Shown here one piece after another: positions 5,406 through 59,933 of a stretch of DNA of 64,000 nucleotides. Each line of letters begins with the position of its first letter. Position 1 is the stretch's first letter. Source of the stretch: an uncultured Methanomicrobiales archaeon (GTDB taxonomy: Archaea > Halobacteriota > Methanomicrobia > Methanomicrobiales > Methanospirillaceae); NCBI GenBank assembly GCA_963758915.1, contig CAVWXH010000002.1:32001-96000 (forward strand), read 5' to 3'. The notes beneath the pieces are model-generated. The model was given only the letters and a program-made list of their open reading frames with translations, was not told the DNA's origin and searched no databases. The position numbers and the translations under genes are program-made.

Positions 5406-6293
5406 ATGGATCAGAAACCCGTTAACCCCGGTGCATATCCTAACACCAATATACCCCGCTCTCCCGATACTATTTGGATGACAAAAAAGAGCCTCTCGTC
5501 GGAATTCCGCGATCCCGATAAAGCCGATCGGCTCGATGAACTCGTGAAATACCTCGAATACTTTGACTCCCTGCCGGAAACACAGGTGTTCAAGGAACGC
5601 TCGTACCAGTACCTGGGACTGAAAGCAGGAAGCGTTCTGCTCGATGCAGGATGCGGGCCCGGTTATGATTCGCTCCGCATGGCGGCACGTGTCGGGAGTT
5701 CCGGGCACGTCACGGGAATTGATCTGAGCACGGGAATGGTTGCCCGGGCACAGGAAAAGGCGGCGGGGTCGGGCTTACCGGTCACATTCAGGACAGGAAA
5801 TATCTGTGACCTGGACCTGCCGGACGACAGTTTCGATGGGGTGAGAGTAGAACGCACCCTCCAGCTCGTTGCCGACACCGGGCGGGGAATCGACGAACTA
5901 ATCCGTGTACTTCGACCGGGAGGGACACTGGTGGCAGTCGACCCCGACTGGGAGACGTTCGTCGTCGACCCGGGAGACCGCGATACCACCCGGAAATTTT
6001 TCAGGTTCTGTGCGGACCAGTTCCCTGACGGCTCATCAGGACGCAAATTCTACCGGTACTTCCGTGAGCGGGACCTCCGCGATGTCGTGATACATCCCGA
6101 ACCCCTTGTATTTCATGATTTTTCCCTGGCGTACCGGGTATTGAATATGAACCAGTTCCTTGCGGCTGCCGTGGAGCAGTCCGTACTCTCACAGGGCGAA
6201 GCGGAGGCCTGGGAACAGGAGCTGAAGTCCGCAGATGCTGCAGGGAATTTCACCTTCACCGGTATGATGTTTGCCGTGTCAGGCCGGAAGTGA
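5406..6293 (+). CDS. Class I SAM-dependent methyltransferase (UbiE-like)
   Basis: LLDAGCGPG motif I, GIDLS, DDSFDGV, RVLRPGG. Confidence 0.88.
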   Translation: MDQKPVNPGAYPNTNIPRSPDTIWMTKKSLSSEFRDPDKADRLDELVKYLEYFDSLPETQVFKERSYQYLGLKAGSVLLDAGCGPGYDSLRMAARVGSSGHVTGIDLSTGMVARAQEKAAGSGLPVTFRTGNICDLDLPDDSFDGVRVERTLQLVADTGRGIDELIRVLRPGGTLVAVDPDWETFVVDPGDRDTTRKFFRFCADQFPDGSSGRKFYRYFRERDLRDVVIHPEPLVFHDFSLAYRVLNMNQFLAAAVEQSVLSQGEAEAWEQELKSADAAGNFTFTGMMFAVSGRK

Positions 6294-6392
6294 CCCGGGG
6301 TTTAAGATACACGGCTCTTCACCCGGACCCATTTTCCAGGGATCTTTCATGGCGAAAAAAATGGTTCCCGTATTTGTCCATGGCGGGTGGAA

Positions 6393-7098
6393 TTATCTTT
6401 CCGGAATACCGGTCCCGGTTTTCTCTACCAGATACCGGAGCCATACGATACCATTCCCCATCACTTCGGTATGAACGTGTGCCAGGGGGACCTGGAGATC
6501 GTTAAAACCGGCCTTATGCGGATCGAACATAGTTGGATCAGGGAGGCCTCCTGCAAGGTAAGGGTGGACAAGCACACTCACTTCATCCACCACCCCGGCC
6601 TGGAGAAGGACACTGTTGAGGGTCCCCCCGCTGTCAACCCTGACGGTTTTAACCCCGTAATCCTTGTTCAGCGCTTCCAGTGCGGGACGCATATCGATAT
6701 GGTCATCTCCGGCAACGATGGCACCGATTTTTCTTTCCCGGAGATAGTCCCGGTATTGCTGCGGGGTTGAGGTTGAACACAGGGCCAGAACATCCCGCAT
6801 GTAGGGCCATTTCCTGATGGCGTCCCAGCAGCGTACCCTCCCCCGGCTGTCGGCGATGACCAGCAGGGGACGCGGGATCGGGCGATCCATCCGGTGGTCT
6901 GAACATCTCCTCGTGCTCCGGGGGAACTTCCAGCGCAGGGTTGTCCCGGACTGCTGCAAGCACCGTCTCACTGCCAAACAGAATTGCATCGGGGTTCCAT
7001 TGTGCAGCAAGCGCATAATAGAGTTCAAGGTCTGCTGGAAATCCGGTAATACGACCATCGAGACTTGTAGCGGTATGGAGTATGACTTTTGGTAGCAT
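6393..7098 (-). CDS. RibD C-terminal / dihydrofolate reductase-like protein (frameshift near 6880)
   Basis: N-terminal PKVILHTATSLDGRI in one frame; LLVIADSRGR, VDSGGTLN and VDEVSVLVHP in the next. Confidence 0.8.
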
Positions 7099-15219: not shown

Positions 15220-15548
15220 GGATATCATTGGTAACCCCATGCGATGGTACCATATGATCATCCATCGCAAATGTAATTTAAACATTACATTATGGCAAGT
15301 TATGCATACAATTATTGTCCCTGCTTATGAAACAGGGATGTGCCAGGCATTCCAGTGTGCCGGGAGGATACCTGACACACTTCCCGACACCCCGTCATTA
15401 TGCTGTTGCACTGATTGCAGGACCTTACCTGCGCATGCTCATGCATAGCACCCTTACAGATCATATCAGCAGTTTTTTTTATCGTTCCGTAACCCGTTGC
15501 ACCCCTTGCGATACCTATTTTGTAATTTGGGATCCACTAAGTTACGTA

Positions 15549-18486
15549 ATGGCCTCCTGTGTCCACCGGATAGAAGTCCGCTTTACAAAGGACCCCCGTC
15601 TTAAGACCCGTACCGACCGGATACGGTCACTGGGTTTCCCGATCGACGAGTTGCATCTTGTTGATGTCTATACCATCACAACGGGTGTGCAGGATTTTTC
15701 GGCAGTCGAGCTTGACCAGATCGGATCGCAGCTGGTCAATCCGGTGGTGCAGGAATTTTCAGTAGACCTTCCATTCCTGGCTGATTTTGATTATGCCATT
15801 GAAGTCGGGTTCCTGCCTGGGGTTACTGATAATGTGGGCACAACAGCACGGCAGACAATCGGGGACTTTTTCCCCGGTGTCGAAGATGTCTCTGTCTATA
15901 CGTCTCAGCTCTTTTTTATATGCGGGGTTTTGTCAGCAGGTCTTGTGCAGAAACTTGCATTGACGCTTGCAAACCCGCTCGTAAACCGGGTCCATACAAA
16001 GACCCGGAAGGAATACGGCACATCAGGCATGGGCCGCGAGGTCCCGCTGGTCCGGTTGCACGAACTGCTGGGTGCCGGCGAAGTGGACCTCAGTCTTGAC
16101 GACCGTGAGCTCTCACGGATAGGGAAAGAGGGCATAACCGATCCCCTCAGTCACCAGAGACGGGGGCCGCTTGCACTTGACCTTGTCCAGCTGCATGCGA
16201 TCCGTGACTATTTCATGAAAAAGGGACGAAAGCCCACGGATGTGGAGCTTGAATCCCTTGCACAGACCTGGAGTGAGCACTGCAAGCACACGATCTTTGC
16301 CTCGCCAATGGATGATGATCTCCCGGACGGGCTTTACAAGACCTATATCCAGGCCGCAACCAATAAAATCCGGAAGGAAAAAGGAGAGAAGGACATCTGC
16401 CTGACGGTGTTTACCGACAACTCCGGTGCCATTATTTTTGACGATCACTACCTCGTGACCCACAAGGTCGAGACCCACAACTCCCCCTCTGCCCTCGACC
16501 CGTTTGGTGGTGCACTTACCGGCATTGTCGGCGTGAACCGCGATACTATCGGTTTCGGCCTCGGGGCGAAGCCCTGCATCAACGTGTACGGGTACTGTGT
16601 CGGGGACCCGGAGTCTGACCCGGCCCTGTATCGCGGCAGGGACAAGACAAACCCGATCCTCTCACCGAGGAGGATCCTCGACGGTGTTGTCCACGGGGTT
16701 GGTGTCGGCGGCAACTGCTCCGGGATCCCGACCCCGCAGGGATGGGTATATTTTGATAACCGGTACGTGGGAAAACCCCTTGTCTTTGCAGGTACGGTGG
16801 GTGTTATGCCGCGTGAACTGTCGGGAAGGAAACTCTACGAGAAACAGGCAGAACCTGGTGACCTTATCGTTGTTGCCGGTGGGCGGGTGGGAAAAGACGG
16901 TATTCACGGTGCCACCTTCTCATCTGAAGCCCTTGACCCGGGAAGCCCGGTGACCGCGGTGCAGATCGGCGACCCGATTACCCAGAAGAAGTTATCGGAC
17001 GCGATCGTGAAGGAAGCCCGGGACCTCGGACTCTACCGGAGTATCACGGATAACGGGGCAGGCGGCATTTCCTGCTCGGTTGCCGAGATGGCAAAGGAGT
17101 GCAACGGGGCCCGGGTATCACTTGACAAAGTCCCGCTGAAATACCCTGGTATGGCCCCGTGGGAGATCTGGATCTCTGAATCTCAGGAGCGGATGACTCT
17201 TGCAGTTCCGCCAAGAAAAATTGGTGCATTCATGGAGCTGATGGGGCGGCGTGAAGTCGAGGCAGTGGTCATCGGGGAGTTTTCGGACATCAGGCAGGTG
17301 TATCGTTGAATACCATGGTGACGTGGTGATGGATATTGAGCTTGCCTTCCTGCACGACGGCCTGCCAAAAAAACACCTGAAGACCCGGTTCACAAAAAAG
17401 ACCTATCCCGAACCGGCCGTTCCCTGCCCACAACGTCTTGACGCAACATTGGTCGCGATGCTTCAGCGAAAGAATATCTGCTCAAAGGAATTCATTTCGA
17501 TCCAGTACGATCATACCGTGCAGGGAGGCCATATACTTGGGCCTTTGCAGGGAAAGGGGCGGGTGCAGGCAATGGCGACGCTCACCAAAGTTGTGCCCGG
17601 TTCAAAAAAAGGTGTGGGGCTGTCCCAGGGAATGTTCCCCTCGTATTCCGAGATTGACCCGTACCTCATGGCAGCTGCCGGGATCGATACCGCGATCCGC
17701 GGCCTTATTGCACTCGGAATACCAATTGATGCGATTGCAATTCTCGATAATTTCTGCTGGTGCTCGTCAGATGACCCTGAACGCCTCGGGCAGCTGAAAC
17801 GTGCGGCAAAAGGGTGCTACGATATTGCGACTGCATTTGGCACGCCCTTCATCTCGGGTAAAGACAGCATGTACAACGATTTCTCCGGGTATGATGCGGA
17901 TAATAACCCCGTGAAGGTCTCTGTCCCCCCTACCCTCCTTATCTCATCCATCGGTATCCACGAGGACGTGGTACGATCCGTATCCCCCGATGCGAAGATT
18001 GAAGGTGACCTGGTCTATGTGATCGGGGCAACAAGGGAAGAACTTGGGGGATCAGAGTATTTCGCGTATCTCGGAGGTGTGGGAAACATCGTCCCGTCCC
18101 TTGATCCTGGTATGGTAAAAGCACGCTACGGGCGGCTTACGAAAGCCATCCTGAACGAGCTGGTGGCATCAGCCTGCCCGGTCGCCCGGGGCGGTCTCGG
18201 GGTCGCCCTTGGCATGGCTGCCATTGCCGGCCGGGTTGGCATGGAACTGTCGATCCCTTCCGGTATGCGGCCGGATTATTTCCTCTTCTCCGAGTCGCTC
18301 GGCCGTTTCGTCGTGACCATCTCCCCGGAAAACAGGCAGGTATTCGAACAGATTCTGGGTGGAGATGCGGTGCTGCTTGGAACGGTAACCGGAAACAACC
18401 TGCAGATCACCGGAAAGGACCTCCTGGTTGATGTTCCGGTGAGCGAGCTTGAAAATGCCTACAAGGCACCATTTAAGGAGTACTGA
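15549..18486 (+). CDS. purL: Phosphoribosylformylglycinamidine synthase subunit PurL (long N-terminus; frameshift near 17285)
   Basis: QTWSEHCKH, KVETHNSPSALDPFGGA, DGIHGA, DNGAGG, ISESQERM, QYDHTV, FISGKDS, FSES. Confidence 0.95.
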
Positions 18487-35867: not shown

Positions 35868-38800
35868 TTACACTTTGCAGTAATCAACGGTGTACCTGCC
35901 CCGGGGTACATGGATCTCGAACCTTGCACCATGACCTGCTTCTCCTGTTTCCGTAATGGTAATCCCGGTAATGGAGAGGATCTCCCTGACAAGGAACAGT
36001 CCAAGTCCCGTGTTCTGTCCGACCCCCCGTTCAAAGATCCTTGATTTATCTTTTCTTGTAATCCCTATCCCGTCATCCTCGAAGATAATCACGAGTCCTG
36101 ATTCCCCCTCGCGGGCAAGGAGCTGTATCGTGGTGAGCGGTTCACCCCCATACCGGAGAGTATTGTCAATGAGATTATAGAACACTTTTTCGAGCAGCTG
36201 GTCTGCCAGAACCCGCACTTTACCCACATCGATATCGATCGTTATCCGATCGTTATGCAACAGGCTGGATGCCCTCGTGACTGTCTCCGCAAGATCCTGC
36301 CAGACAGGGTCATTCACCCCGATATCCTGGTAATCTTTCGTGAAGGTGATCTGGCGCTCGATTATCGTTGTTGCATCCCGGATCATTTTGATATATGGTG
36401 CCGCATGGTCCCCGGGTGGCTCAGCGGTGAGGAGGTCAAGGGCCCCCTTCAGGACGGTGAGCTGGTTTAAGAGGTCATGACGGGTAATGCTGTTCAGGAG
36501 GTGCAGGCGCCTGTTCGTCAGCTCGATCATATCCCGGTATTTCCGCATCTCAGAGATGTCAAGGATTGTCCCGGCTACGTGGGCCGGTTTTCCCATCACG
36601 TCGTACCTGATTACTTTACCCCGGAACAGCAGCCACTTGTAGGACCCGTTACTGCAGAGGAGCCGTTGTTCCTCGTTCAGGATTGATGATGCGCCGGACA
36701 GGAAATTCTTAAGGCTGCTGATGGCTTTTTCAACGTCCTCAGGATGAATAATCTTTTCAAGGAGGGCAATATCCACGGTTGTGGATTCTCCCTGGTATCC
36801 AAGGAGGTCAAGTACTTTCTGGCTGACTATTAAATCCGGTTCAGGTGTTACATCGCATTCCCATATACCTACATCCCCTCCCTCGATCGCAAGCTGCAGC
36901 CGCTCCTCGTTCTTACGGAGTTCTTCTTCGAGCTGCTTGTAGCGGGTAATAAACAGGCCCACACCCGTCAGCCGGGCTGGCTGACCGCTTTCGTCCCCGA
37001 TCACTCTGCCAATCGCACGCATCCACTCTACCCTTGCGTCCGGGAACAACAGGCGGAATTCGATGGCAAAATCCGGATGAGACTGCCACCCGGCAATAGT
37101 CCCGGATAGTGTTGATTCAATGTGCCCCCGGTCGTCCGGGTGTACAAGTTTCAAAAAATCAGTGAAATTGTCGGCAAATGCAGCCTCCTGCATGGTCCCA
37201 CGATCCCGCACAGGCAACTCACTGATGCGGTCGTCGATAATGTCCCACTCCCATAGCTGCATTTCAGAGATGGATAAGGCCATTTTCAGCTTTGCATAGG
37301 TGTCTTTGAGTTCATCTTCTGCTGCTTTCCGGTCTGTAATATTCCTGAGGTACTCGATTACCCCTTTCGATTCCCCGCTCAAATCATCGATTAGCGGGAA
37401 ACTATAGAGTTCAAACCACCCGTCGATTTTACCGGCAGGACCTATTTTCGGGACCGTCTCAACCCTTGGTTCCCCGGTGGATATTGTCAGGGAGGAAGGA
37501 CAATTTTCACACGGTTCTTTCCGGAGATGATAGGCCTCGTAACATTTTTTTCCTACCAGCGGCATCTGGTGGGCATACCACCCCTCAATTGCCGGGTTTA
37601 CCCGGATGATCCGCATCTCGTGGTCAAGGATGCTGATGCCGTCCCTGATACTTGAGAAGATATTATTAAGAAAACGTTCCCTTGCCTCAAGTTCAAGTGC
37701 ATAGGTCTTTTTACTGGTGATATCCCGTCCGAAAATGGCCAGTTTCCTGACCCGGCCATCGGTTTCCCGTATGGGGTTAATGGAATTTTCGATGATCCGG
37801 TTGCCTGTTGTAAATTCAAAAGACCCCGGGTACCTCCCCGGACTGCCTTGTTGACCTGTTCTTTCAGGGCAGCGGCATAGTCTTCCGGGACGATCTGGTA
37901 TAAATTAGTCTCCAGGACATCGTCCATATTCATGTGGAACCATTTTGCTGCGACCTCGTTGAGTTTCAGGATAATCCCTGTATCCGTAACCAGGACTGCA
38001 GCTTCATGGGTCGCATCGAGAAGTGCACCTGTCGTTGTTTCGCTCTCCCTCAATATCTCTTCTATCTGGTGACGTTTTGATGTTTCAAGGGCGAGCGAGA
38101 TATAATCTGCAACTGACGTCGCAAATTCCTGTTCCTTTTCGTTCCATGTGCGTTGTTTCCCGACGTGTTCGTGGCATACGATACCAATTACATGGCCGTT
38201 TAACCAGACCGGGACGTCCAGTATGGAGGTGATGCCATGTGGCTTGAGATAGTCCTCGAACAGTTCTTTCGTGCAGAAATGTTCTTTCACATCGTCTGCA
38301 GTGATCAATCTCTGTTCCCCCAGTTCGTGGAAGTATACCGGGTGCCCGGGGGCATCAAGATGTCCCCCTTCCTCATGGGAATCCGTGCTCTTTGTATAGA
38401 GATCACGGCAGGTGATGCCCTTCCGGTCATTATCACATGTCCAGAAACTGACACGTTCAACGTCGAGTAACACTGCATCGGTCTCAAGGAAGTGCCTGAC
38501 CGCAGGAGTAAACAGGGAGAGATCGGTCCTTGCGAGGTCAAGGAGCGCCTGGTGATACCTAAGGCTCCAGCTCTGCCTGTGATTTGGCAAGTTCCTCGCT
38601 GTTCTTTCTCCCAGTGATATCACGCGCAATCAGGAGGACTGCAGAACGGCCCTTGAAACTGGTGATCCGTCCCCGCCCTTCTATCCATCGTTCTGCACCT
38701 GAAACGGTCTTTATCCTGTACTCCCCAAGGAGAGGGTGCCCATCCCTTACCTTCGCCAGCTGGTACCGTGCGGTTGAAAGGCTTTCGTCAAGAATAAAGT

Positions 38801-40152
38801 CAAAAATATTCCGGACCTTGCCGGACTCCCCGGACGGCAGACCAGCCAGTTCCGCCACATTTTCGTTCGCGAAGAGGACTGTCCCATCCCAGTCGAGTAT
38901 GAAAATACCATCTGGCATGTTCTCGACCAGCGATTTGAAGAGTTTCTGGCTTTCCCTGGCCTTTTCTTCGGCTGCCCTGATCTCGCTGAGGTCGATGATT
39001 ATTCCCCGCAGGCCGGAAATTCCCCCGCTCTGGATAATGGGTGACGCAAATATCTGGATTGGGAACGTTGTCCCGTCCTTGCGGGCCGCTGTGTAGACAT
39101 CCCCCTGTTCGCCCGCACCATCGGCAAGTGCCCGGATACCCTTCATCGCCCGTTCATGCTCTTCGGGAACCAGCATTGCTGAAAATATTGTACCCGTCAC
39201 CCAGTTCTCCACGGGGGTACCGGAACATATCAAAGGTGCGCTGGTTTGCGTACAGGATTTTACCCCGGTTATCGATCTCAAACACGCTCTGGGGAAGCAT
39301 CTCGGTAAGTTCCTGGAACCGGTCTTTTCCTTCGAGAATGGTCTTCTCGTACTGTTTCAGATCGGTAATATCCCGGATGCTCTCGATCGCTCCGATTACA
39401 TTCCCTTCATTGTCATAGAACGGTGTGGCTTTCGCCCATACAATGGTCGGTCTCTTATGTAATTCCGGGACTTCGGTTTCTGCGATAATGCCATGCCCGT
39501 CCCGGGTGATGCTCTTGTAATACTTGTTCCTGATTTGTTCGTCTTCTTCATAGAGCAGGTCAATCAGTATTTTACGTCTTATTCCGTAGAATGGTATGGA
39601 GTATTCATAATCCCCCTTCCCCAGCATATCCGCGGCAGGGACTTCTGTCATCTCCTCGATCGCCCGGTTCCACGCGATCACCTTTCCCTCACGGTCGATA
39701 GCAAAGGTCGCATCGGGAAGGAAGTTTATTATATCGTGCAGCCTGCGTTCTGAACGGATGTGGGCTTCTTCCGCTTCTTTTCGCTTACAGGCCTGGTGGA
39801 CCATGTTTCGCAGTTCGGCGAACTGTGACTTCGGGTCCCCACCTTTCTGGAGGTAAAAATCAGCCCCGTAGTTGAGCGCTTCGATTGCCACCTGCTCCCG
39901 CCCCCGCCCGGTGAAGATGATAAAGGGGGTGTTGTTCCCGTCTGACCTGACCTTCTTGAGGAACTCGATCCCGTCCATTGCCGGCATCTCGTAGTCAGAG
40001 ATGATGATGTCGAACTGTTCCTGTCCCAGGATCCGTAATGCATCGAAGGCAGAAGGGCAGGTCTTTACCCTGAGCCTCTCGTCACGTTCGATAAAAATGC
40101 GTGCAATATCAAGAAGAGCCGGTTCGTCGTCAACAAGAAGTATCCGTATCAT
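35868..40152 (-). CDS. Hybrid sensor histidine kinase REC-PAS-GAF-PAS-HK (three frameshifts)
   Basis: N-terminal REC (LLVDDE, SDYEMP, FYLQKG), several PAS domains, GAF (SILDVPV...GIVCHEH), H-box NSITRHDLLNQL, YNLIDN, EDDGIGI, GLGLFL; split across four ORFs. Confidence 0.88.
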
Positions 40153-53540: not shown

Positions 53541-54643
53541 ATGGAACTTTCGAAACCCATAACCGGACCCGCACAGCGGATCATCCTCCATGTAGATATG
53601 GACGCTTTTTTTGCCGCTGTCGAGATGCGGGAACACCCGGAAATCAGGGGATGTCCAGTCATAGTCGGTGCGGACCCGAAAGATGGGAAAGGCCGTGGTG
53701 TAGTCAGCACAGCGTCCTACGAGGCACGGATATTCGGTGTGCATTCTGCGATGCCAATCTCGAAGGCCTTTGAGCGTCTGTCCCGGGGGCGTATTTGTGC
53801 GCCCCCATTTTGACCTGTATGTCCAGGCATCCAGGGATGTGATGGAGATCGCAAAGAGCGCCGCCGAACGGTTTGAGCAGGTTAGTATCGACGAGGCATA
53901 CCTCGATATCTCCATGACCCGGGACTATACGTCCGCCCGTGCAACAGCAGTTGCCCTGAAAGAGGCTATCAGGAATAAAACAGGGCTTACCTGCTCGATC
54001 GGGGTTGCCCCCTCAAAGGTCGTGGCCAAAATTGCATCAGATTACCGGAAACCTGACGGGCTCACCGTGGTGGAGCCAGGATGTGTGAGCGGTTTCCTCT
54101 CGCCGCTTCCTGTCGGCAAGATCCCCGGGGTCGGCAGGAAGAGCCGCGGGACGCTGCACCAGCTGGGGGTCCGCACGATTGGTGATCTCTCCCGTATCGA
54201 TGTCCAGGAATTAATCGCACTCTTCGGGAAGTGGGGAGCGGTGATCCATGACCTTTCATTGGGAACTGATGACCGTGAGGTAAGGCAGGAAGAGGGATAC
54301 AAATCGATATCACGCGAGATTACCTTTGAGAATGACACCGATGAGAAAACAGGTACTGGTACAGACGCTCGACGACATGGCACTGGAGCTCCATGCGGTC
54401 CTGGTCAACGAGCACCTCCGGTTCCGGACAGTTACGGTGAAGGTACGAGACGAGCATTTTCTGACCCGTACCCGGTCAAGAACATTTGAGCGGTACAGTG
54501 ATGATCCCGGCCTGATAAGAACAACTTCACACGGACTTCTTCCCGGGTTTCCGGAAGGCCGGAAAATCCGGCTGATTGGACTCAGGTTGTCAGGATTTGA
54601 GCCGAGAGGGGGTCGCCAGTCGACAATTTCGGAATTTACCTGA
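53541..54643 (+). CDS. dinB: DNA polymerase IV DinB (two frameshifts, near 53775 and 54345)
   Basis: [64 protein letters not shown]. Confidence 0.93.
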
Positions 54644-54891: not shown

Positions 54892-55607
54892 TCAAAATTT
54901 AAATAGATCGTCCATCGAGTAGATGCCCCTGCGGCCATAGAGAAATTCACCTGCCAGCACGGCTCCAAAAGCCAGGCCACGGCGCGATTTTGCGCAGATA
55001 GTTACCGATAGCACGTCGTTTTCCGATTCATAGATGATTTTATGGATACCGGGGACTTCACCTTCCCGAAACGAACTGATGCCTATTTCTTCGACGGAGT
55101 CGGTATAGCGGTTCAACCACAATTTTTTTGTACCGCACTGGCTATTATGTCTTCCGCCAGTGTGATGGCAGTGCCGCTCGGCGAGTCGAGTTTATGCCTG
55201 TGGTGGGTTTCTTCAATGGAAACGTTGTAATCTGGGAACTGGTTCATTATGCGTGCTAGTTCCTTGTTAAGATGAAACATGATGTTCACCCCGATGCTGT
55301 AATTGGACGAATAAAAGAATGAACCACCGTGTGAATTACATAACTCCCTGACTTCACCGAGATGTTTGTTCCAGCCTGTCGAACCGCACACCACTGCGGT
55401 GCCGCATTCGATGCATTTCCTGACATTTGCGTACGCCGTGTCCGGGGATGTGAACTCGAAAGCCACATCGACCTGCCGGAGGTTTCCGGCGTTCAGGTCG
55501 GCCACATTGTCCTTGGTTATCGTAAGCACGGTTTCGTGTCCCCGTTCACCAAGGATTTTCTCGATTTCCCGGCCCATTTTGCCGTATCCAATAATTGCCG
55601 CTTTCAT
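54892..55607 (-). CDS. dapB: 4-hydroxy-tetrahydrodipicolinate reductase (frameshift in poly-T near 55125)
   Basis: IIGYGKMGREIE, EFTSP, GSTGW, SNYSIGVN, EETHHRHKLDSPSGTA, REGEVPGIH, GAVLAGEF. Confidence 0.92.
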
Positions 55608-55763
55608 CGTTTTACCCTGTTTTCGGGAAAGATAATGCATTTGGAGGTTAAAAATATGGCGTATCAATGTGTTATTCTTTAAAAATTACGAAGGGTTTTT
55701 TAAAAAAAGGAGGATCAAAAAAAGAAAAGATGGTCCGATGGTAATGGGGTTGCAACCTGCATT

Positions 55764-57500
55764 TCATACTGCCGGCAGTTCTATCACGGTTGATATGACT
55801 TCCCCTTCTGTTTCACAGGAGAAAAAGCCCCCGGAAAGCTCGCACTCTTTTATCATGAAACCGAGCCGTTCCCCTGGAAAATCAATGCCTGGCGAATGGA
55901 ATTCTGCACTGATTGTCACAAAGCCGCGATTGGTCTCTTTCGTATTGCTGACGGTTATCTGTTCACCGCCGATACCTGCCATATCCTCGAGAATACCTGC
56001 AATTAAGTCTTTTAATCGTTCCCTGTCTGCAACTACGCTGAATGGATATTCCCCGGGGATGAATGAGACCGGGTTCTCCTCAAAAACAGGTACATAGACG
56101 AGCCTTTTCACAAGTGCCTGCCGGTACAGGGCTTCATCATCGGCAAGTGTTATAAGGTCCTCGTCACTGCAGGGGGGTGAAACGAGCGTCCGGATGCAAT
56201 GGCCAACGAAGGTGTCCAGTTCAAATTCCTCCCTCTCGATGGCTGGTCTGAACCCCCGAAAAAGGGTCATATAATCTGAAAGAAGTCGTTCTGCACGTTT
56301 TACGAGGTAGGGGTCGATGACAAGGTCAAGCTGGCCCGTCCTGTACACCGCTTCAAGTTTTGCCGTGATCTGTCCGGCCTTCAGGGCGAGGTGGACATCG
56401 CGCTGATTTCCTGCACGGTAGTCCTCGTTGAACCGGTGGAAATCAGCGAGGATTGAATCGATTGCATCCAGGCAGAGCAGGCCCGACAGGTTCTCTGCTT
56501 CACCGGCCTCCTCGAGTTCCTCCAGGATATGGGCTGCACGGTAACACCTTCCCGCCATGATGGTGAAGGTCTCAGCCACACGGTTCATCAGGTCGTTTGC
56601 ATACCGTGCAGTCTGCTTTGCCCACTCGGGATTGATCTCCTGGATCTCGGTCAGGAAATAGGTCTCTTTCTCCATATTGGCAAAGACAGCTTCAGCACTT
56701 GCAGAAGATATCAGGCGCCCGTGTCCCGGGCAGCAGACCCTGATATCTTCGTTATCCAGGATCCACCTGACTTTGTGAAGCGATGCGATGAGATCCTGCT
56801 GGCTCCACCCACGAAGACCGGCAATCCCCGGGCTCGCCGCAAAAAGCAGGTCGCCAATGAAAAGCAGGCCACCGACCCGGATACAGATGCTGTCACTGCT
56901 GTGGCCCGGGAGATGGTAGACCTCCACCCTGTCCTGCGGCCCGGAAACCACGACCTGGCGTTTCAGGAAGAGGGTGTCATCTACCGTTATATCACTCTCC
57001 TGGACACGGACACAGGGAGCAACAAGCGGGCAAATCTCAAAAAAATCAGTCTTATGTTCCCGGGTCGGGGCGAACAGCTGCATTGGTACATGCAGGGGGG
57101 TGAGCCTGATCTGGAACAGGTCTGCCTGGGTACTTGCGGTATCAGCAGTCTCAAGGCTTGCTGCCCCTGTGGCATGGGCGGCAATGATGGGTCGCACCGG
57201 TCCATTAAAGAACGGGTGAGACTGGATTACCACAAAATGGTCGACATGGGTATGGGTGAGGTAAATAAAGACCGGCCGTGGATTTACCGTCCGGATCCTC
57301 TCAATTTCAGTTGCAAGCAGGTCCATCTGCTCCATCAAACCGCCAGGATCGATAAGGATGATCTGAGACGGCGTCGAAATAATATAAGAATTTGATGAGT
57401 TTGTATCTACTTTCCTGATATAGGGAAAGATTTGTGCATGTTCATCACCGGGAAGCGGCTGCCAGCGCTGGTTTTCGAGCAGTTCACTTCCATGCGTCAA
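55764..57500 (-). CDS. Metallo-beta-lactamase-fold hydrolase with helical region and degenerate HATPase-like C-terminus (start uncertain)
   Basis: LIDPG, THTHVDH, PGHS, FIGDLL and CPGHG are intact; C-terminal VVADRERLKDLIAGILEDM...ECELSGGFF...VIELP. Overlaps the STAS stop. Confidence 0.8.
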   Translation of the reverse strand: MTHGSELLENQRWQPLPGDEHAQIFPYIRKVDTNSSNSYIISTPSQIILIDPGGLMEQMDLLATEIERIRTVNPRPVFIYLTHTHVDHFVVIQSHPFFNGPVRPIIAAHATGAASLETADTASTQADLFQIRLTPLHVPMQLFAPTREHKTDFFEICPLVAPCVRVQESDITVDDTLFLKRQVVVSGPQDRVEVYHLPGHSSDSICIRVGGLLFIGDLLFAASPGIAGLRGWSQQDLIASLHKVRWILDNEDIRVCCPGHGRLISSASAEAVFANMEKETYFLTEIQEINPEWAKQTARYANDLMNRVAETFTIMAGRCYRAAHILEELEEAGEAENLSGLLCLDAIDSILADFHRFNEDYRAGNQRDVHLALKAGQITAKLEAVYRTGQLDLVIDPYLVKRAERLLSDYMTLFRGFRPAIEREEFELDTFVGHCIRTLVSPPCSDEDLITLADDEALYRQALVKRLVYVPVFEENPVSFIPGEYPFSVVADRERLKDLIAGILEDMAGIGGEQITVSNTKETNRGFVTISAEFHSPGIDFPGERLGFMIKECELSGGFFSCETEGEVISTVIELPAV

Positions 57501-57819
57501 GCGCATCCCCTTCAGAGGAAAAGATGGTAAAAATTGTGGTGAACCCTGCAAGTTTCAGGATTTTATTCACCTCCTGGGTAAGGCAGCAGAGTCCGAACTT
57601 ATCGTTTGGGCTCCTTAGTTTCTTTGCCGTGGAAAGGAGCACCCGCAGGCCACCGCTGCTGATATAGGTCACTTCTGAGAAGTTCAGGAGAATTTTGCGT
57701 TTTCCTTCCCCCATCAGGGTATTCAGTTCCTTCTCCAGCTGTGGTGCCGCAGTGGTATCGATCCGGCCGAAGAGTGCAATGATGGCCACACCCTCCCTGT
57801 GGCTCGTGGTGGTATCCAT
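57484..57819 (-). CDS. STAS domain anti-anti-sigma factor (RsbV/SpoIIAA-like)
   Basis: GRIDTTAAP.L, LNFSEVTYISSGGLRVLL (phospho-Ser motif), ILKLAGF. Confidence 0.92.
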   Translation of the reverse strand: MDTTTSHREGVAIIALFGRIDTTAAPQLEKELNTLMGEGKRKILLNFSEVTYISSGGLRVLLSTAKKLRSPNDKFGLCCLTQEVNKILKLAGFTTIFTIFSSEGDALDAWK

Positions 57820-58089
57820 TGGTCCCATCTCCTTGTAGTGAATATACATTTGATCCGGTTACTTATAAGTACACCATAATGCAACCCGGTCAGAACCTCC
57901 CCGTTTCAGCAACGGGCAGAAAAAAAGGTCAGTCCACCTTGAGCATGCCTCCGGCATTATAATTTTGGTTTGCAAAAACGACCTTTTCATGTAACCGGAT
58001 GTCATACGTGTCCGGCAGGTGGCCGTATAGAACCCGGAGGTGCACTATTAATGCATTTACTGACTACCTTTTGATGGTAATCCTGTATT

Positions 58090-59482
58090 ATGGCGCTCTT
58101 CATGCCTGATGACCTGCTTGTCCTGGTCCAGATGATCTGTGTAATCGTCGTAGTTGCCTACCTCCTGACCCGACAGCGCATCTTCACCGATGTTCTTGAT
58201 GGTCATCCGACCCTGAAAGCCCAGGTACTGCTTACGCTGATATTTGGTGCACTTTCTATATACGGGACAATGTCAGGCATAACGGTGCTCGGTGCCCCGA
58301 TCAATGTCCGCGACCTTGGGCCCATGGTCGCAGGTCTTACCTGTGGTCCTTTTGTCGGGCTCGGAGCCGGCCTTATCGGTGCGGCGTACCGGGTGACACT
58401 TGAAGGGTTTACGGTCTATGCCTGCTCGCTTGCCACGGTGCTCGCAGGAGTGCTCGGTGGCCTGGTCTGGCTTTTACATAATAAAAAATTCCCCGGGACC
58501 CGTATTGCAGTTGAATTTGCCGTCATGATGGAGGGGCTTCATATGCTCCTCGTACTTATTATCGCCACCCCGTTTGCCATGGCACTTGCACTGGTATCTG
58601 CCGTCGCAATCCCGATGATCTTCGCGAACGCGTTAGGGATGTTCATCTTTTCATTTATCATCACAAATCTGCAGGAGGAGCGAAAGACCCGGGTGGAACG
58701 TGATAATTATCTCCGGGATATCGAGCGGAAAAATACAGAACTGGAAATTGCTGCGGATATCCAGAAGAGTTTCCTGCCCACGGAAATTGAGCAGCTCATC
58801 GGTTTTGATATTGCGGCGACGAGCATCCCTGCAAAAGAGGTGGGTGGAGATTTCTTTGATGTAATCCCGTTTGCCGTGGTCCCTGCAAAAGACCACAAGG
58901 CGGGTATTATGATTGCCGATGTCTCGGGAAAAGGGATCCCCGCTGCCCTGTTTATGGCGTTATCGCTGGTCGTCATGCGGGTCAGTTCACTCTGGCATAC
59001 CCACCCGGCAGATGTGCTCAGGGATGCGAACGGTATCATCTCCATGGACACAAAAGAGACGGGCATGTTTGTCACCGTTTTCTACGCAGTGATCGACGAG
59101 GAACTACGGCAGGTTACGCTACGCGAATGCGGGCCATAATCCACCGATGGTCTACCGGGCCGGTACAGGGATGATCGAGGAGCTCGGGGTGACAGGGGTT
59201 GCGCTGGGTATTATGGACACGGCAACCTACACTGAACAGGTATGTGTGCTATCCCCTGGGGACATTGTGCTCCTTTATACCGACGGTATAACAGAGGCAG
59301 AAAACGAGGCTGAGGAGATGTTTGGAGAAGAAAGACTGCGTGAAGCGTTATTGCAGTACCACACCCTCCGTGCCCGCGGGATAGTGGACTCGGTACTGCA
59401 TGATGCACGGGCATTTGCAGCGGGATACCCCCAGTCTGATGACATGACGCTGATGGTGCTGAAGGCAGTAAAAGACAAATAA
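58090..59482 (+). CDS. 5TM-5TMR_LYT (LytS-type) sensor fused to a SpoIIE/RsbU PP2C phosphatase (frameshift near 59120-59145)
   Basis: FGALSIYGT..G...INVRDLG...AGL..GP.VG; ELEIA.DIQ.SFLP, VGGDFFD, IADVSGKG.PAAL, MFVT, LYTDGITEA, SDDMT. Confidence 0.9.
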
Positions 59483-59516
59483 GAAATCTGATAAGGGTCT
59501 GAACCATGGTTTTGTT

Positions 59517-59933
59517 ATGAAAGGCCGGACTGACCAGACGATCCCGGCTGATATGTCCGGTCTTAAGGAAATTCTTGACGGGATAGCGATACTGCTTGAG
59601 GAGCAGGGATTTCCTTTAGAATTGATCAGCGATGTACAGCTGGCGACAGATGAGGCGGTGGTGAACGCTATCATCCATGGTTATGCTGGAAAAGAGGGTG
59701 AAGTGCGTGTTATTGCAGAGGCTGACGACCGGGAGGTAGTCGTCATTGTTGAGGACCGGGCCCCGGCCTTTGACCCGGTTACCTTCGTATCGCGGGATGT
59801 GTCATTAGACGGGGATGACCGGCCGATCGGCGGCCTCGGCCTTATACTGATCAGGAACGTCATGGACGAGGTCGGGTACCGCCGCCAGGACGGAAAAAAT
59901 ATCTTGACGATGGCAAAGCGCCGGGGTCAATAA
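59517..59933 (+). CDS. RsbW/SpoIIAB-like anti-sigma factor Ser kinase
   Basis: LATDEAVVNAIIHGY (N-box), EDRAPAFDP, IGGLGL.LI...MDEV.Y...GKN.L. Confidence 0.92.
   Translation: MKGRTDQTIPADMSGLKEILDGIAILLEEQGFPLELISDVQLATDEAVVNAIIHGYAGKEGEVRVIAEADDREVVVIVEDRAPAFDPVTFVSRDVSLDGDDRPIGGLGLILIRNVMDEVGYRRQDGKNILTMAKRRGQ

Follow-up and report, generated by a model that had tools for sequence, protein, structure and literature searches.

Two partner switches of Bacillus, RsbU/RsbV/RsbW and SpoIIE/SpoIIAA/SpoIIAB, are built from proteins of three families, namely a SpoIIE-type PP2C phosphatase, a single-domain phospho-serine STAS protein and a small HATPase_c_2 kinase. The same three families are encoded at one locus of an uncultured Methanomicrobiales archaeon, at positions 55764-59933 of a stretch of 64,000 nucleotides (nt) (assembly GCA_963758915.1, contig CAVWXH010000002.1, positions 32,001 to 96,000), which is called the window here. 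In contrast to the Bacillus switches, the archaeal locus belongs to a genome without a sigma factor, hence their defining feature is missing; moreover, the predicted partner of its STAS protein is a dead histidine-kinase-like (HKL) module fused to a metallo-beta-lactamase (MBL) hydrolase, the whole protein being named MBL-HKL in this text, and its phosphatase appears to be driven by a 5TM-LytS domain. The sensor kinases LytS, BtsS and YpdA have this 5TM-5TMR_LYT domain in common with the archaeal protein, but the output domain behind it is here of the SpoIIE/PP2C type and not a histidine kinase. The new element of the system is proposed to be the STAS partner, in which a dead kinase module is joined to an active-looking hydrolase.

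An enzyme, as proposed here for the archaeal locus, is the output of the SiaABCD system of Pseudomonas aeruginosa, whose small binding protein SiaC is not known to be a Pfam STAS protein. SiaC activates the diguanylate cyclase SiaD by binding to it (PMC8457831). The likeness to the proposed archaeal system is that a phosphatase and a kinase act through a small protein, which steers an enzyme by direct binding and no sigma factor; the difference lies in the output, a diguanylate cyclase, and in the docking, which takes place on stalk helices (PMC8457831). In a methanogen, bacterial-type STAS, kinase and serine-phosphatase genes were reported in 2010 to flank the nonribosomal peptide synthetase genes of Methanobrevibacter ruminantium and were assumed to regulate them; this is a comparable STAS/kinase/phosphatase set, but no MBL-HKL protein is described in the passages on these genes (PMC2812497). 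Partner-switching genes have been annotated in archaea for over a decade (PMC2812497), and since sigma factors are absent from archaea, no target of theirs is known. A literature search outside the subscription journals returned no description of a partner switch in archaea whose partner is an MBL protein or a pseudokinase. The locus supplies a candidate target that can be tested biochemically, as well as a predicted docking surface with named residues on both sides.

The reading favoured here, with somewhat better than even confidence, is a sigma-less partner switch in which the STAS protein regulates the hydrolase through a pseudokinase adaptor. It is favoured because the components appear to be intact, STAS and MBL-HKL are linked or fused, MBL-HKL co-occurs with the kinase, an outlier genome carries the set as one operon, HKL has a GHKL fold, a STAS complex is predicted and the genome has no sigma factor. 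The RsbW-type kinase would phosphorylate the invariant serine of the STAS protein, as expected from knowledge of the family and from the conserved residues, and the membrane-bound 5TM-LytS-PP2C phosphatase would strip the phosphate from it upon sensing a cue. The STAS protein is predicted by the complex model to dock by its serine-bearing loop onto the HKL module of the glyoxalase-II-like MBL hydrolase, and its phosphorylation state would set whether the hydrolase is bound and hence switched. By analogy with anti-sigma factors, HKL may restrain the MBL domain in cis until unphosphorylated STAS protein binds, and this binding might either activate or inhibit the hydrolase. The parts of the locus, with their positions in the window, are the following.

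55764-57506, minus strand: MBL-HKL gene, 580 amino acids (aa) from the ATG at 57506; longest open reading frame (ORF) 55764-57551
56658-57506, minus strand: MBL domain (aa 1 to ~283), glyoxalase-II-like; Pfam Lactamase_B
55767-56657, minus strand: HKL module (aa ~284-580), in which a helical bundle precedes an alpha-beta domain like the catalytic and ATP-binding (CA)/GHKL domain; predicted STAS docking site
57484-57819, minus strand: STAS gene of the anti-sigma-antagonist type, 111 aa from the ATG at 57819; longest ORF 57484-57849
57850-58089, no strand: divergent intergenic region of 240 nt that separates the STAS-MBL genes from those of the phosphatase and kinase
58090-59482, plus strand: 5TM-LytS plus SpoIIE/PP2C gene, present in the assembly as ORFs 58090-59139 and 59147-59482
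59517-59933, plus strand: RsbW/SpoIIAB-type GHKL serine kinase, 138 aa; Pfam HATPase_c_2 3.1e-28

ORF calls and Pfam searches on the window place four divergent genes at 55764-59933. An earlier account made from the DNA letters without database searches (the sequence-only reading) had described this layout, and it stands with two amendments: the phosphatase gene is split in the window, and the MBL part of the "MBL hydrolase" is confined to its first ~283 residues, behind which ~297 residues form a separate conserved module, the proposed key to the mechanism. The same account had noted a STAS protein with an intact YISS phospho-site and a gene overlapping that of the MBL protein, and both points are borne out. 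The motif T-Y-I-S-S-G-G is encoded at 57669-57649 on the minus strand, with the codon of Ser55 (Ser65 in the 121-aa ORF) at 57655-57657, and the overlap amounts to 23 nt with the MBL start at ATG 57506, which matches the homologue lengths of 578-583 aa, or to 68 nt with the longest ORF. The STAS protein is recognized by Pfam STAS (4.4e-19) and by the NCBIfam anti-sigma factor antagonist family TIGR00377 (73.2 bits vs a cut-off of 53.45), and its residues Y52, S55, G57, R59 and L61 are invariant in 50 cognate sequences. The kinase has E46, N50, D80, R102 and a G105-G-L-G motif, which recur in at least 90% of 45 sequences; its score of 53.4 lies below the cut-off of 145 of the NCBIfam RsbW equivalog, so it does not count as an RsbW orthologue. 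A genome scan shows it to be the only small dedicated HATPase_c_2 protein of its own genome. The Pfam families also confirm the claim of a STAS/RsbW/PP2C set in a sigma-less archaeon: Sigma70_r2 finds no match in the organism's own genome, which is 94% complete, and as a control it matches 10/10 bacteria and 0 archaea. Matches to Sigma70_r4 in the genome were rejected as a sigma factor, being generic helix-turn-helix matches that are present in all four archaeal control genomes.

In the phosphatase gene, Pfam 5TM-5TMR_LYT matches at 2.9e-41 over model positions 3-168 of 169, and the SpoIIE match comes in two pieces, model positions 2-81 in ORF 58090-59139 and 87-190 in ORF 59147-59482. A single extra base at 59117 breaks the gene in the window, and the A-N-A-G-H-N-P-P stretch of the phosphatase falls in a different frame; the metal-binding Asp motifs of the PP2C domain are retained, as judged by eye on the translations. 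In seven relatives (97% down to ~55% identity) the LytS-PP2C gene is one continuous ORF, the window being one base longer, and contigs from 3/3 covering public metagenome runs (X1, X3, X4) are one base shorter at 59117/59118, where a fourth run, X2, has no cover; one of these runs may be the window's own source. The RNA runs X18-X20 contain no more than 0.06-0.08 of the sequence words. Since several further genes of the window are split and the relatives and public contigs are unbroken, an assembly indel error is the simplest reading of the frameshift, which would leave the organism with a phosphatase that is probably whole.

The C-terminal 296 and 96 residues of the MBL-HKL protein match no Pfam family up to E 10, HisKA and HATPase_c included. 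The AlphaFold2 (AF2) model of the isolated HKL module (predicted local distance difference test, pLDDT, 83.7; predicted template modelling score, pTM, 0.83) consists of a helical bundle and an alpha-beta domain. With this model, Foldseek finds histidine kinases (WalK/YycG, HK853) and PDKs (PDK4) at E ~3e-7, and VIA-align superposes HKL on the CA domain of ZraS with Z 15.7 and a root-mean-square deviation of 2.4 A over 131 residues, followed by ~50 more kinase CA domains. The histidine-kinase dimerization and phosphotransfer (DHp)-CA unit and the PDK/BCK-type kinases have the same build, with a Bergerat/GHKL alpha-beta domain behind a helical bundle. Unlike histidine kinases, HKL has no invariant phospho-acceptor His in its helical part, whether 15 or 59 sequences are compared, and the candidate positions are occupied variously by H, Y, Q, L, F or R; in alignments of homologues neither the N-box Asn and G1 DxGxG positions nor the G2 box show conservation, and the ATP-lid segment is missing or shortened, so that ~9 residues link the strand to the last helix. 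With a kinase-like fold and none of these features, HKL is read as a degenerate, non-catalytic histidine-kinase-like (pseudokinase) module. The GHKL/histidine-kinase fold is the one by which RsbW, SpoIIAB and RsbT bind STAS domains.

A profile search with HKL found 273 clusters (50% identity) among 1.84 billion representatives, and in nearly all of them the module occupies about residues 275-575 of a 530-590-aa protein; homologues of the 580-aa protein are annotated only as "MBL fold metallo-hydrolase". Three proteins of another build (P0134, P0140 and P0166; 1124-1167 aa) combine a polytopic membrane region with a pair of 5TM-LytS domains and a C-terminal HKL. Among 151 genomes of the order, no LytS-HKL fusion with full coverage was found; a metagenome scan yielded one such locus (L115:3962-7462), which adjoins a phosphofructokinase gene.

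Modelling of a STAS:MBL complex, which the sequence-only reading had proposed as a check, gave a result in favour of binding and placed it on HKL. The 580-aa protein and the 111-aa STAS protein were modelled together, each with its own alignment, in three runs and with three controls. The complex score was 0.85 in three runs vs 0.00 for the best of the 3 controls; the 0.85 mark is reached by 116/157 solved complexes and by 2/215 mismatched pairs, a calibration that is only roughly valid with own alignments. The runs share at least 97% of their contacts, and the pLDDT of the partner is at least 89. On the large protein all contacts lie in HKL (312-327, 353, 357, 472-474, 507-513 and 541-542), none involving an MBL residue, and they include the near-invariant F314, G319, R320, L353 and E507. 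On the STAS side, S54, the invariant S55, L58, R59, K66, G92 and F93 are in contact. The complex model supports docking of the STAS protein on HKL via its phospho-serine loop, and profiles detect no similarity of HKL to solved GHKL-STAS proteins.

The association of the two genes was followed in a locus scan with one genome per species, which yielded 67 loci, all from Methanomicrobiales records; domains were called by in-house profiles, with which Pfam agrees on 56 neighbouring ORFs. The STAS gene lies directly upstream of MBL-HKL in 44 loci (same strand, mostly overlapping) and directly downstream in 12, and in 5 it is fused to its C-terminus, such fused forms of 691 aa being present in the protein database as well (P0105, P0108). 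The remaining 6/67 loci are cut by contig ends, with STAS at the expected place in 2 of these, so that STAS is adjacent or fused in 61/61 assessable loci of what is a biased scan. A kinase gene is found within 6 kb in 41/44 of the loci with STAS upstream, in 1/12 with STAS downstream and in 0/5 with a fusion, and a LytS-PP2C gene within 6 kb in 21/67 loci, 19 of them among the 44 with STAS upstream. In 20 loci obtained from relatives by whole-genome search, STAS is adjacent or fused in 14, and in 1 the whole switch lies ~0.9 kb off.

The pair is also tied to the switch at the level of whole genomes. Full-length MBL-HKL is present in 26 of 41 relatives, all 26 of which carry the kinase, and 7 relatives have neither. 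In each of the 5 genomes whose STAS-MBL pair stands apart from the switch, a single small kinase gene is present at another place, immediately after a PP2C gene. Sampling across the phylum showed the HKL module in G000 and in 22/47 other genomes of the order, and in 1/253 genomes outside it. In this outlier, which belongs to another family outside the order, MBL-HKL, STAS, LytS-PP2C and kinase genes form one co-directional operon with a different gene order. The synteny and profiling that the sequence-only reading had called for thus bear it out for the pairing of MBL-HKL with the kinase (26/26), but only in part for gene linkage and for the reverse association, as the counts given below show.

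Some of these loci have further features of their own. In the congener G004 (L032:4786-9163), and likewise in L041, the pair of STAS and MBL-HKL genes is tandemly duplicated, with the first copy in pieces. Four loci with STAS downstream or fused (L050, L052, L053 and L070) have as common neighbours a Metallophos_2 phosphoesterase and a divergent ~440-aa protein, the latter a protein without a clear family, and, on the downstream side, genes for a PALP enzyme and an NAD-kinase-like protein.

The MBL domain is recognized by Pfam Lactamase_B (1.7e-11) in the first half of the protein only, and the full-length AF2 model of the 580-aa protein has a pLDDT of 85.4 and a pTM of 0.74. The enzyme is most likely active, because all seven metal ligands (H85, H87, D89, H90, H202, D219 and H262 in the 580-aa numbering) are invariant in 59 sequences. 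The solved sequences nearest to it are 7ev5, 2zwr, 7l0b, 4ysb and 6rz0, and its top Foldseek match is Staphylococcus aureus GloB (7l0b, 1.0e-9). Small glyoxalase-II-type thioester hydrolases are therefore its nearest relatives in both sequence and fold, and the YcbL/GloB-type enzymes (S. aureus GloB 7l0b, TTHA1623 2zwr, BLEG-1 7ev5) have the same H-x-H-x-D-H, H, D, H ligands; in contrast, the identity is 19-23%, the archaeal domain carries an insertion of ~70 residues, and its score against the glyoxalase II (GloB) equivalog TIGR03413 is 30.1 bits, far below the cut-off of 200.8. A thioester is accordingly put forward as the best guess for the substrate class, the assignment being weak. Methanogens are not known to use glutathione, and the substrate must therefore differ from that of glyoxalase II. 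These relationships, themselves weak, lend no support to the nucleotide second-messenger phosphodiesterase, lactonase or nuclease that the earlier account had suggested. Its view of the MBL protein as the output controlled by the switch holds insofar as this protein is the best candidate for the STAS partner, by adjacency, fusions, co-occurrence, the distant operon and the complex model; information might flow either to the enzyme or from it.

The organism's own genome contains a single kinase gene alongside two genes for small STAS proteins and three for PP2C phosphatases, of which two are of the LytS type and one is of the PAS type. The second small STAS gene (L112:5172-5561), on another contig, lies upstream of a GPR1/FUN34/YaaH gene (5975-6562) of the acetate/succinate permease family, and the further PP2C genes are a LytS-PP2C (L114:3116-4513) and a PAS-PAS-PP2C (L113:3233-4831). 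Other genomes carry a 436-aa protein, called STAS-X here; in the example L049:2945-4252 a STAS domain (4.6e-19) at its N-terminus is followed by a remainder of ~330 residues, and its gene is back to back with that of the kinase. The remainder matches no Pfam family, and hhalign finds no similarity between STAS-X and MBL-HKL (probability 0.1). STAS-X is a candidate for a second partner or output of the switch.

Several observations weigh against regulation of the hydrolase by the STAS protein as the whole account of the system. The locus scan took its seed patterns from the 7 sequences closest to the window's own, which biases it toward the clade of the window, and the related genomes are not independent, so that the figures given above are counts and not a test. 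Among the loci of relatives, 5/20, the most divergent ones (27-36% identity), have no STAS, kinase or PP2C gene within ~5 kb. The kinase occurs without MBL-HKL in 8/34 kinase-bearing relatives, from which it follows that the switch has at least one other partner; STAS-X stands beside the kinase in 20/67 loci, and the own genome has the second small STAS gene near the gene of the acetate-permease family and two further PP2C genes. HKL is also found at the C-terminus of LytS proteins without an MBL domain (P0134, P0140, P0166), where it sits at the transmitter position and would suit input and output alike, and the sole recovered LytS-HKL locus (L115), too little by itself for a conclusion, has no STAS, kinase or PP2C gene within 4 kb. 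The complex score expresses the confidence of a model and is not a measurement, and a part of it may be recall of the solved GHKL-STAS geometry. Given the extra STAS genes, the PP2C genes and STAS-X, MBL-HKL is probably one partner of a branched switch and not the only one.

The same observations bear on other explanations of the locus. MBL-HKL could be an input, its MBL domain binding or turning over a metabolite and HKL capturing the STAS protein away from the kinase, whose own partner would be the real output. The MBL domain does stand at an N-terminal, sensor-like place with HKL at the place of a transmitter, the same HKL lies behind 5TM-LytS sensor domains in the three long membrane proteins, the eight kinase-bearing relatives imply another partner, and a hydrolase serving as input has a precedent in RsbQ-RsbP of Bacillus. 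Nevertheless, no conserved candidate partner of the 138-aa kinase is found in the locus, where the LytS-PP2C protein already provides an input sensor; the invariant catalytic ligands favour a working enzyme over a mere sensor, and the STAS domain fused in cis behind HKL in 5 loci is better suited to regulating that very protein than to titrating a free pool. The input role is the main rival reading, but a rather unlikely one. A role of the MBL domain as a phosphoesterase that dephosphorylates the STAS protein, as a second phosphatase recruited by HKL, would be of use above all in loci with a kinase but no PP2C gene, and the 44 loci with STAS upstream do have the kinase in 41 and LytS-PP2C in only 19; the MBL fold includes phosphoesterases. 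This is quite unlikely, however, as the modelled serine loop touches HKL and no MBL residue, the nearest MBL relatives are thioester hydrolases, and PP2C genes are present elsewhere in every genome checked.

Two more explanations are less probable still. That HKL is an active histidine kinase, or serves as a second kinase of STAS, which would make the MBL protein a sensor kinase, is suggested by its clear DHp-CA or PDK-like fold, but is very improbable for a module with no HisKA or HATPase_c match up to E 10, no invariant His, no conserved N-box Asn or G1 DxGxG and no ATP lid. It is also hard to credit that the STAS and MBL-HKL genes are neighbours without a common function, merely co-inherited in one clade. 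The genomes are closely related and the five divergent loci are unlinked, as such co-inheritance would allow, but the pair is kept in three arrangements (upstream with overlap, downstream and fused) and in a re-ordered operon of another family, and the complex model passes its controls.

Regulation of the hydrolase through HKL may also be an instance of a wider principle, put forward here as a tentative possibility. HKL would be a portable STAS receptor that places any fused partner under the switch, namely the MBL hydrolase in most Methanomicrobiales and LytS- or transporter-like membrane proteins in a few. The anti-sigma principle, in which unphosphorylated STAS protein displaces a partner held by a GHKL protein, would thereby be turned, here in cis, to direct post-translational control of metabolism, and a membrane signal would gate the hydrolysis of a methanogen-specific thiol adduct. 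Should the sigma-less switch hold true, a bacterial transcription switch would have been converted to direct enzyme control in methanogens, the 273 clusters would define a new domain family, and a regulated hydrolytic step would be indicated for Methanoregulaceae, an abundant family of freshwater and peat sediments.

The locus is archaeal, from Methanoregulaceae, and contamination is excluded, because the window contains archaeal marker genes, namely SepCysS (1.4e-167), methyl-CoM reductase component A2 (3.5e-116) and cooS, its GC content is uniform along its length, and the locus adjoins cooS in 4 congeners too. The related contigs bear the names Methanomicrobiales, Methanoregulaceae, Methanoregula or Methanolinea. 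The origin of the contig, which the sequence-only reading had wished to see confirmed, is thereby settled. PADLOC gave no defence-system match among the five ORFs of the locus. Elsewhere in the window, other genes are split or truncated (15315-18486; 53541-54643; 55113-55667; 35868-40152): PurL appears as two overlapping ORFs and the DinB/IMS polymerase as three, DapB ends after 184 aa, and a stretch encoding PAS, response-regulator and histidine-kinase domains consists of several ORFs, a pattern that fits assembly indel errors.

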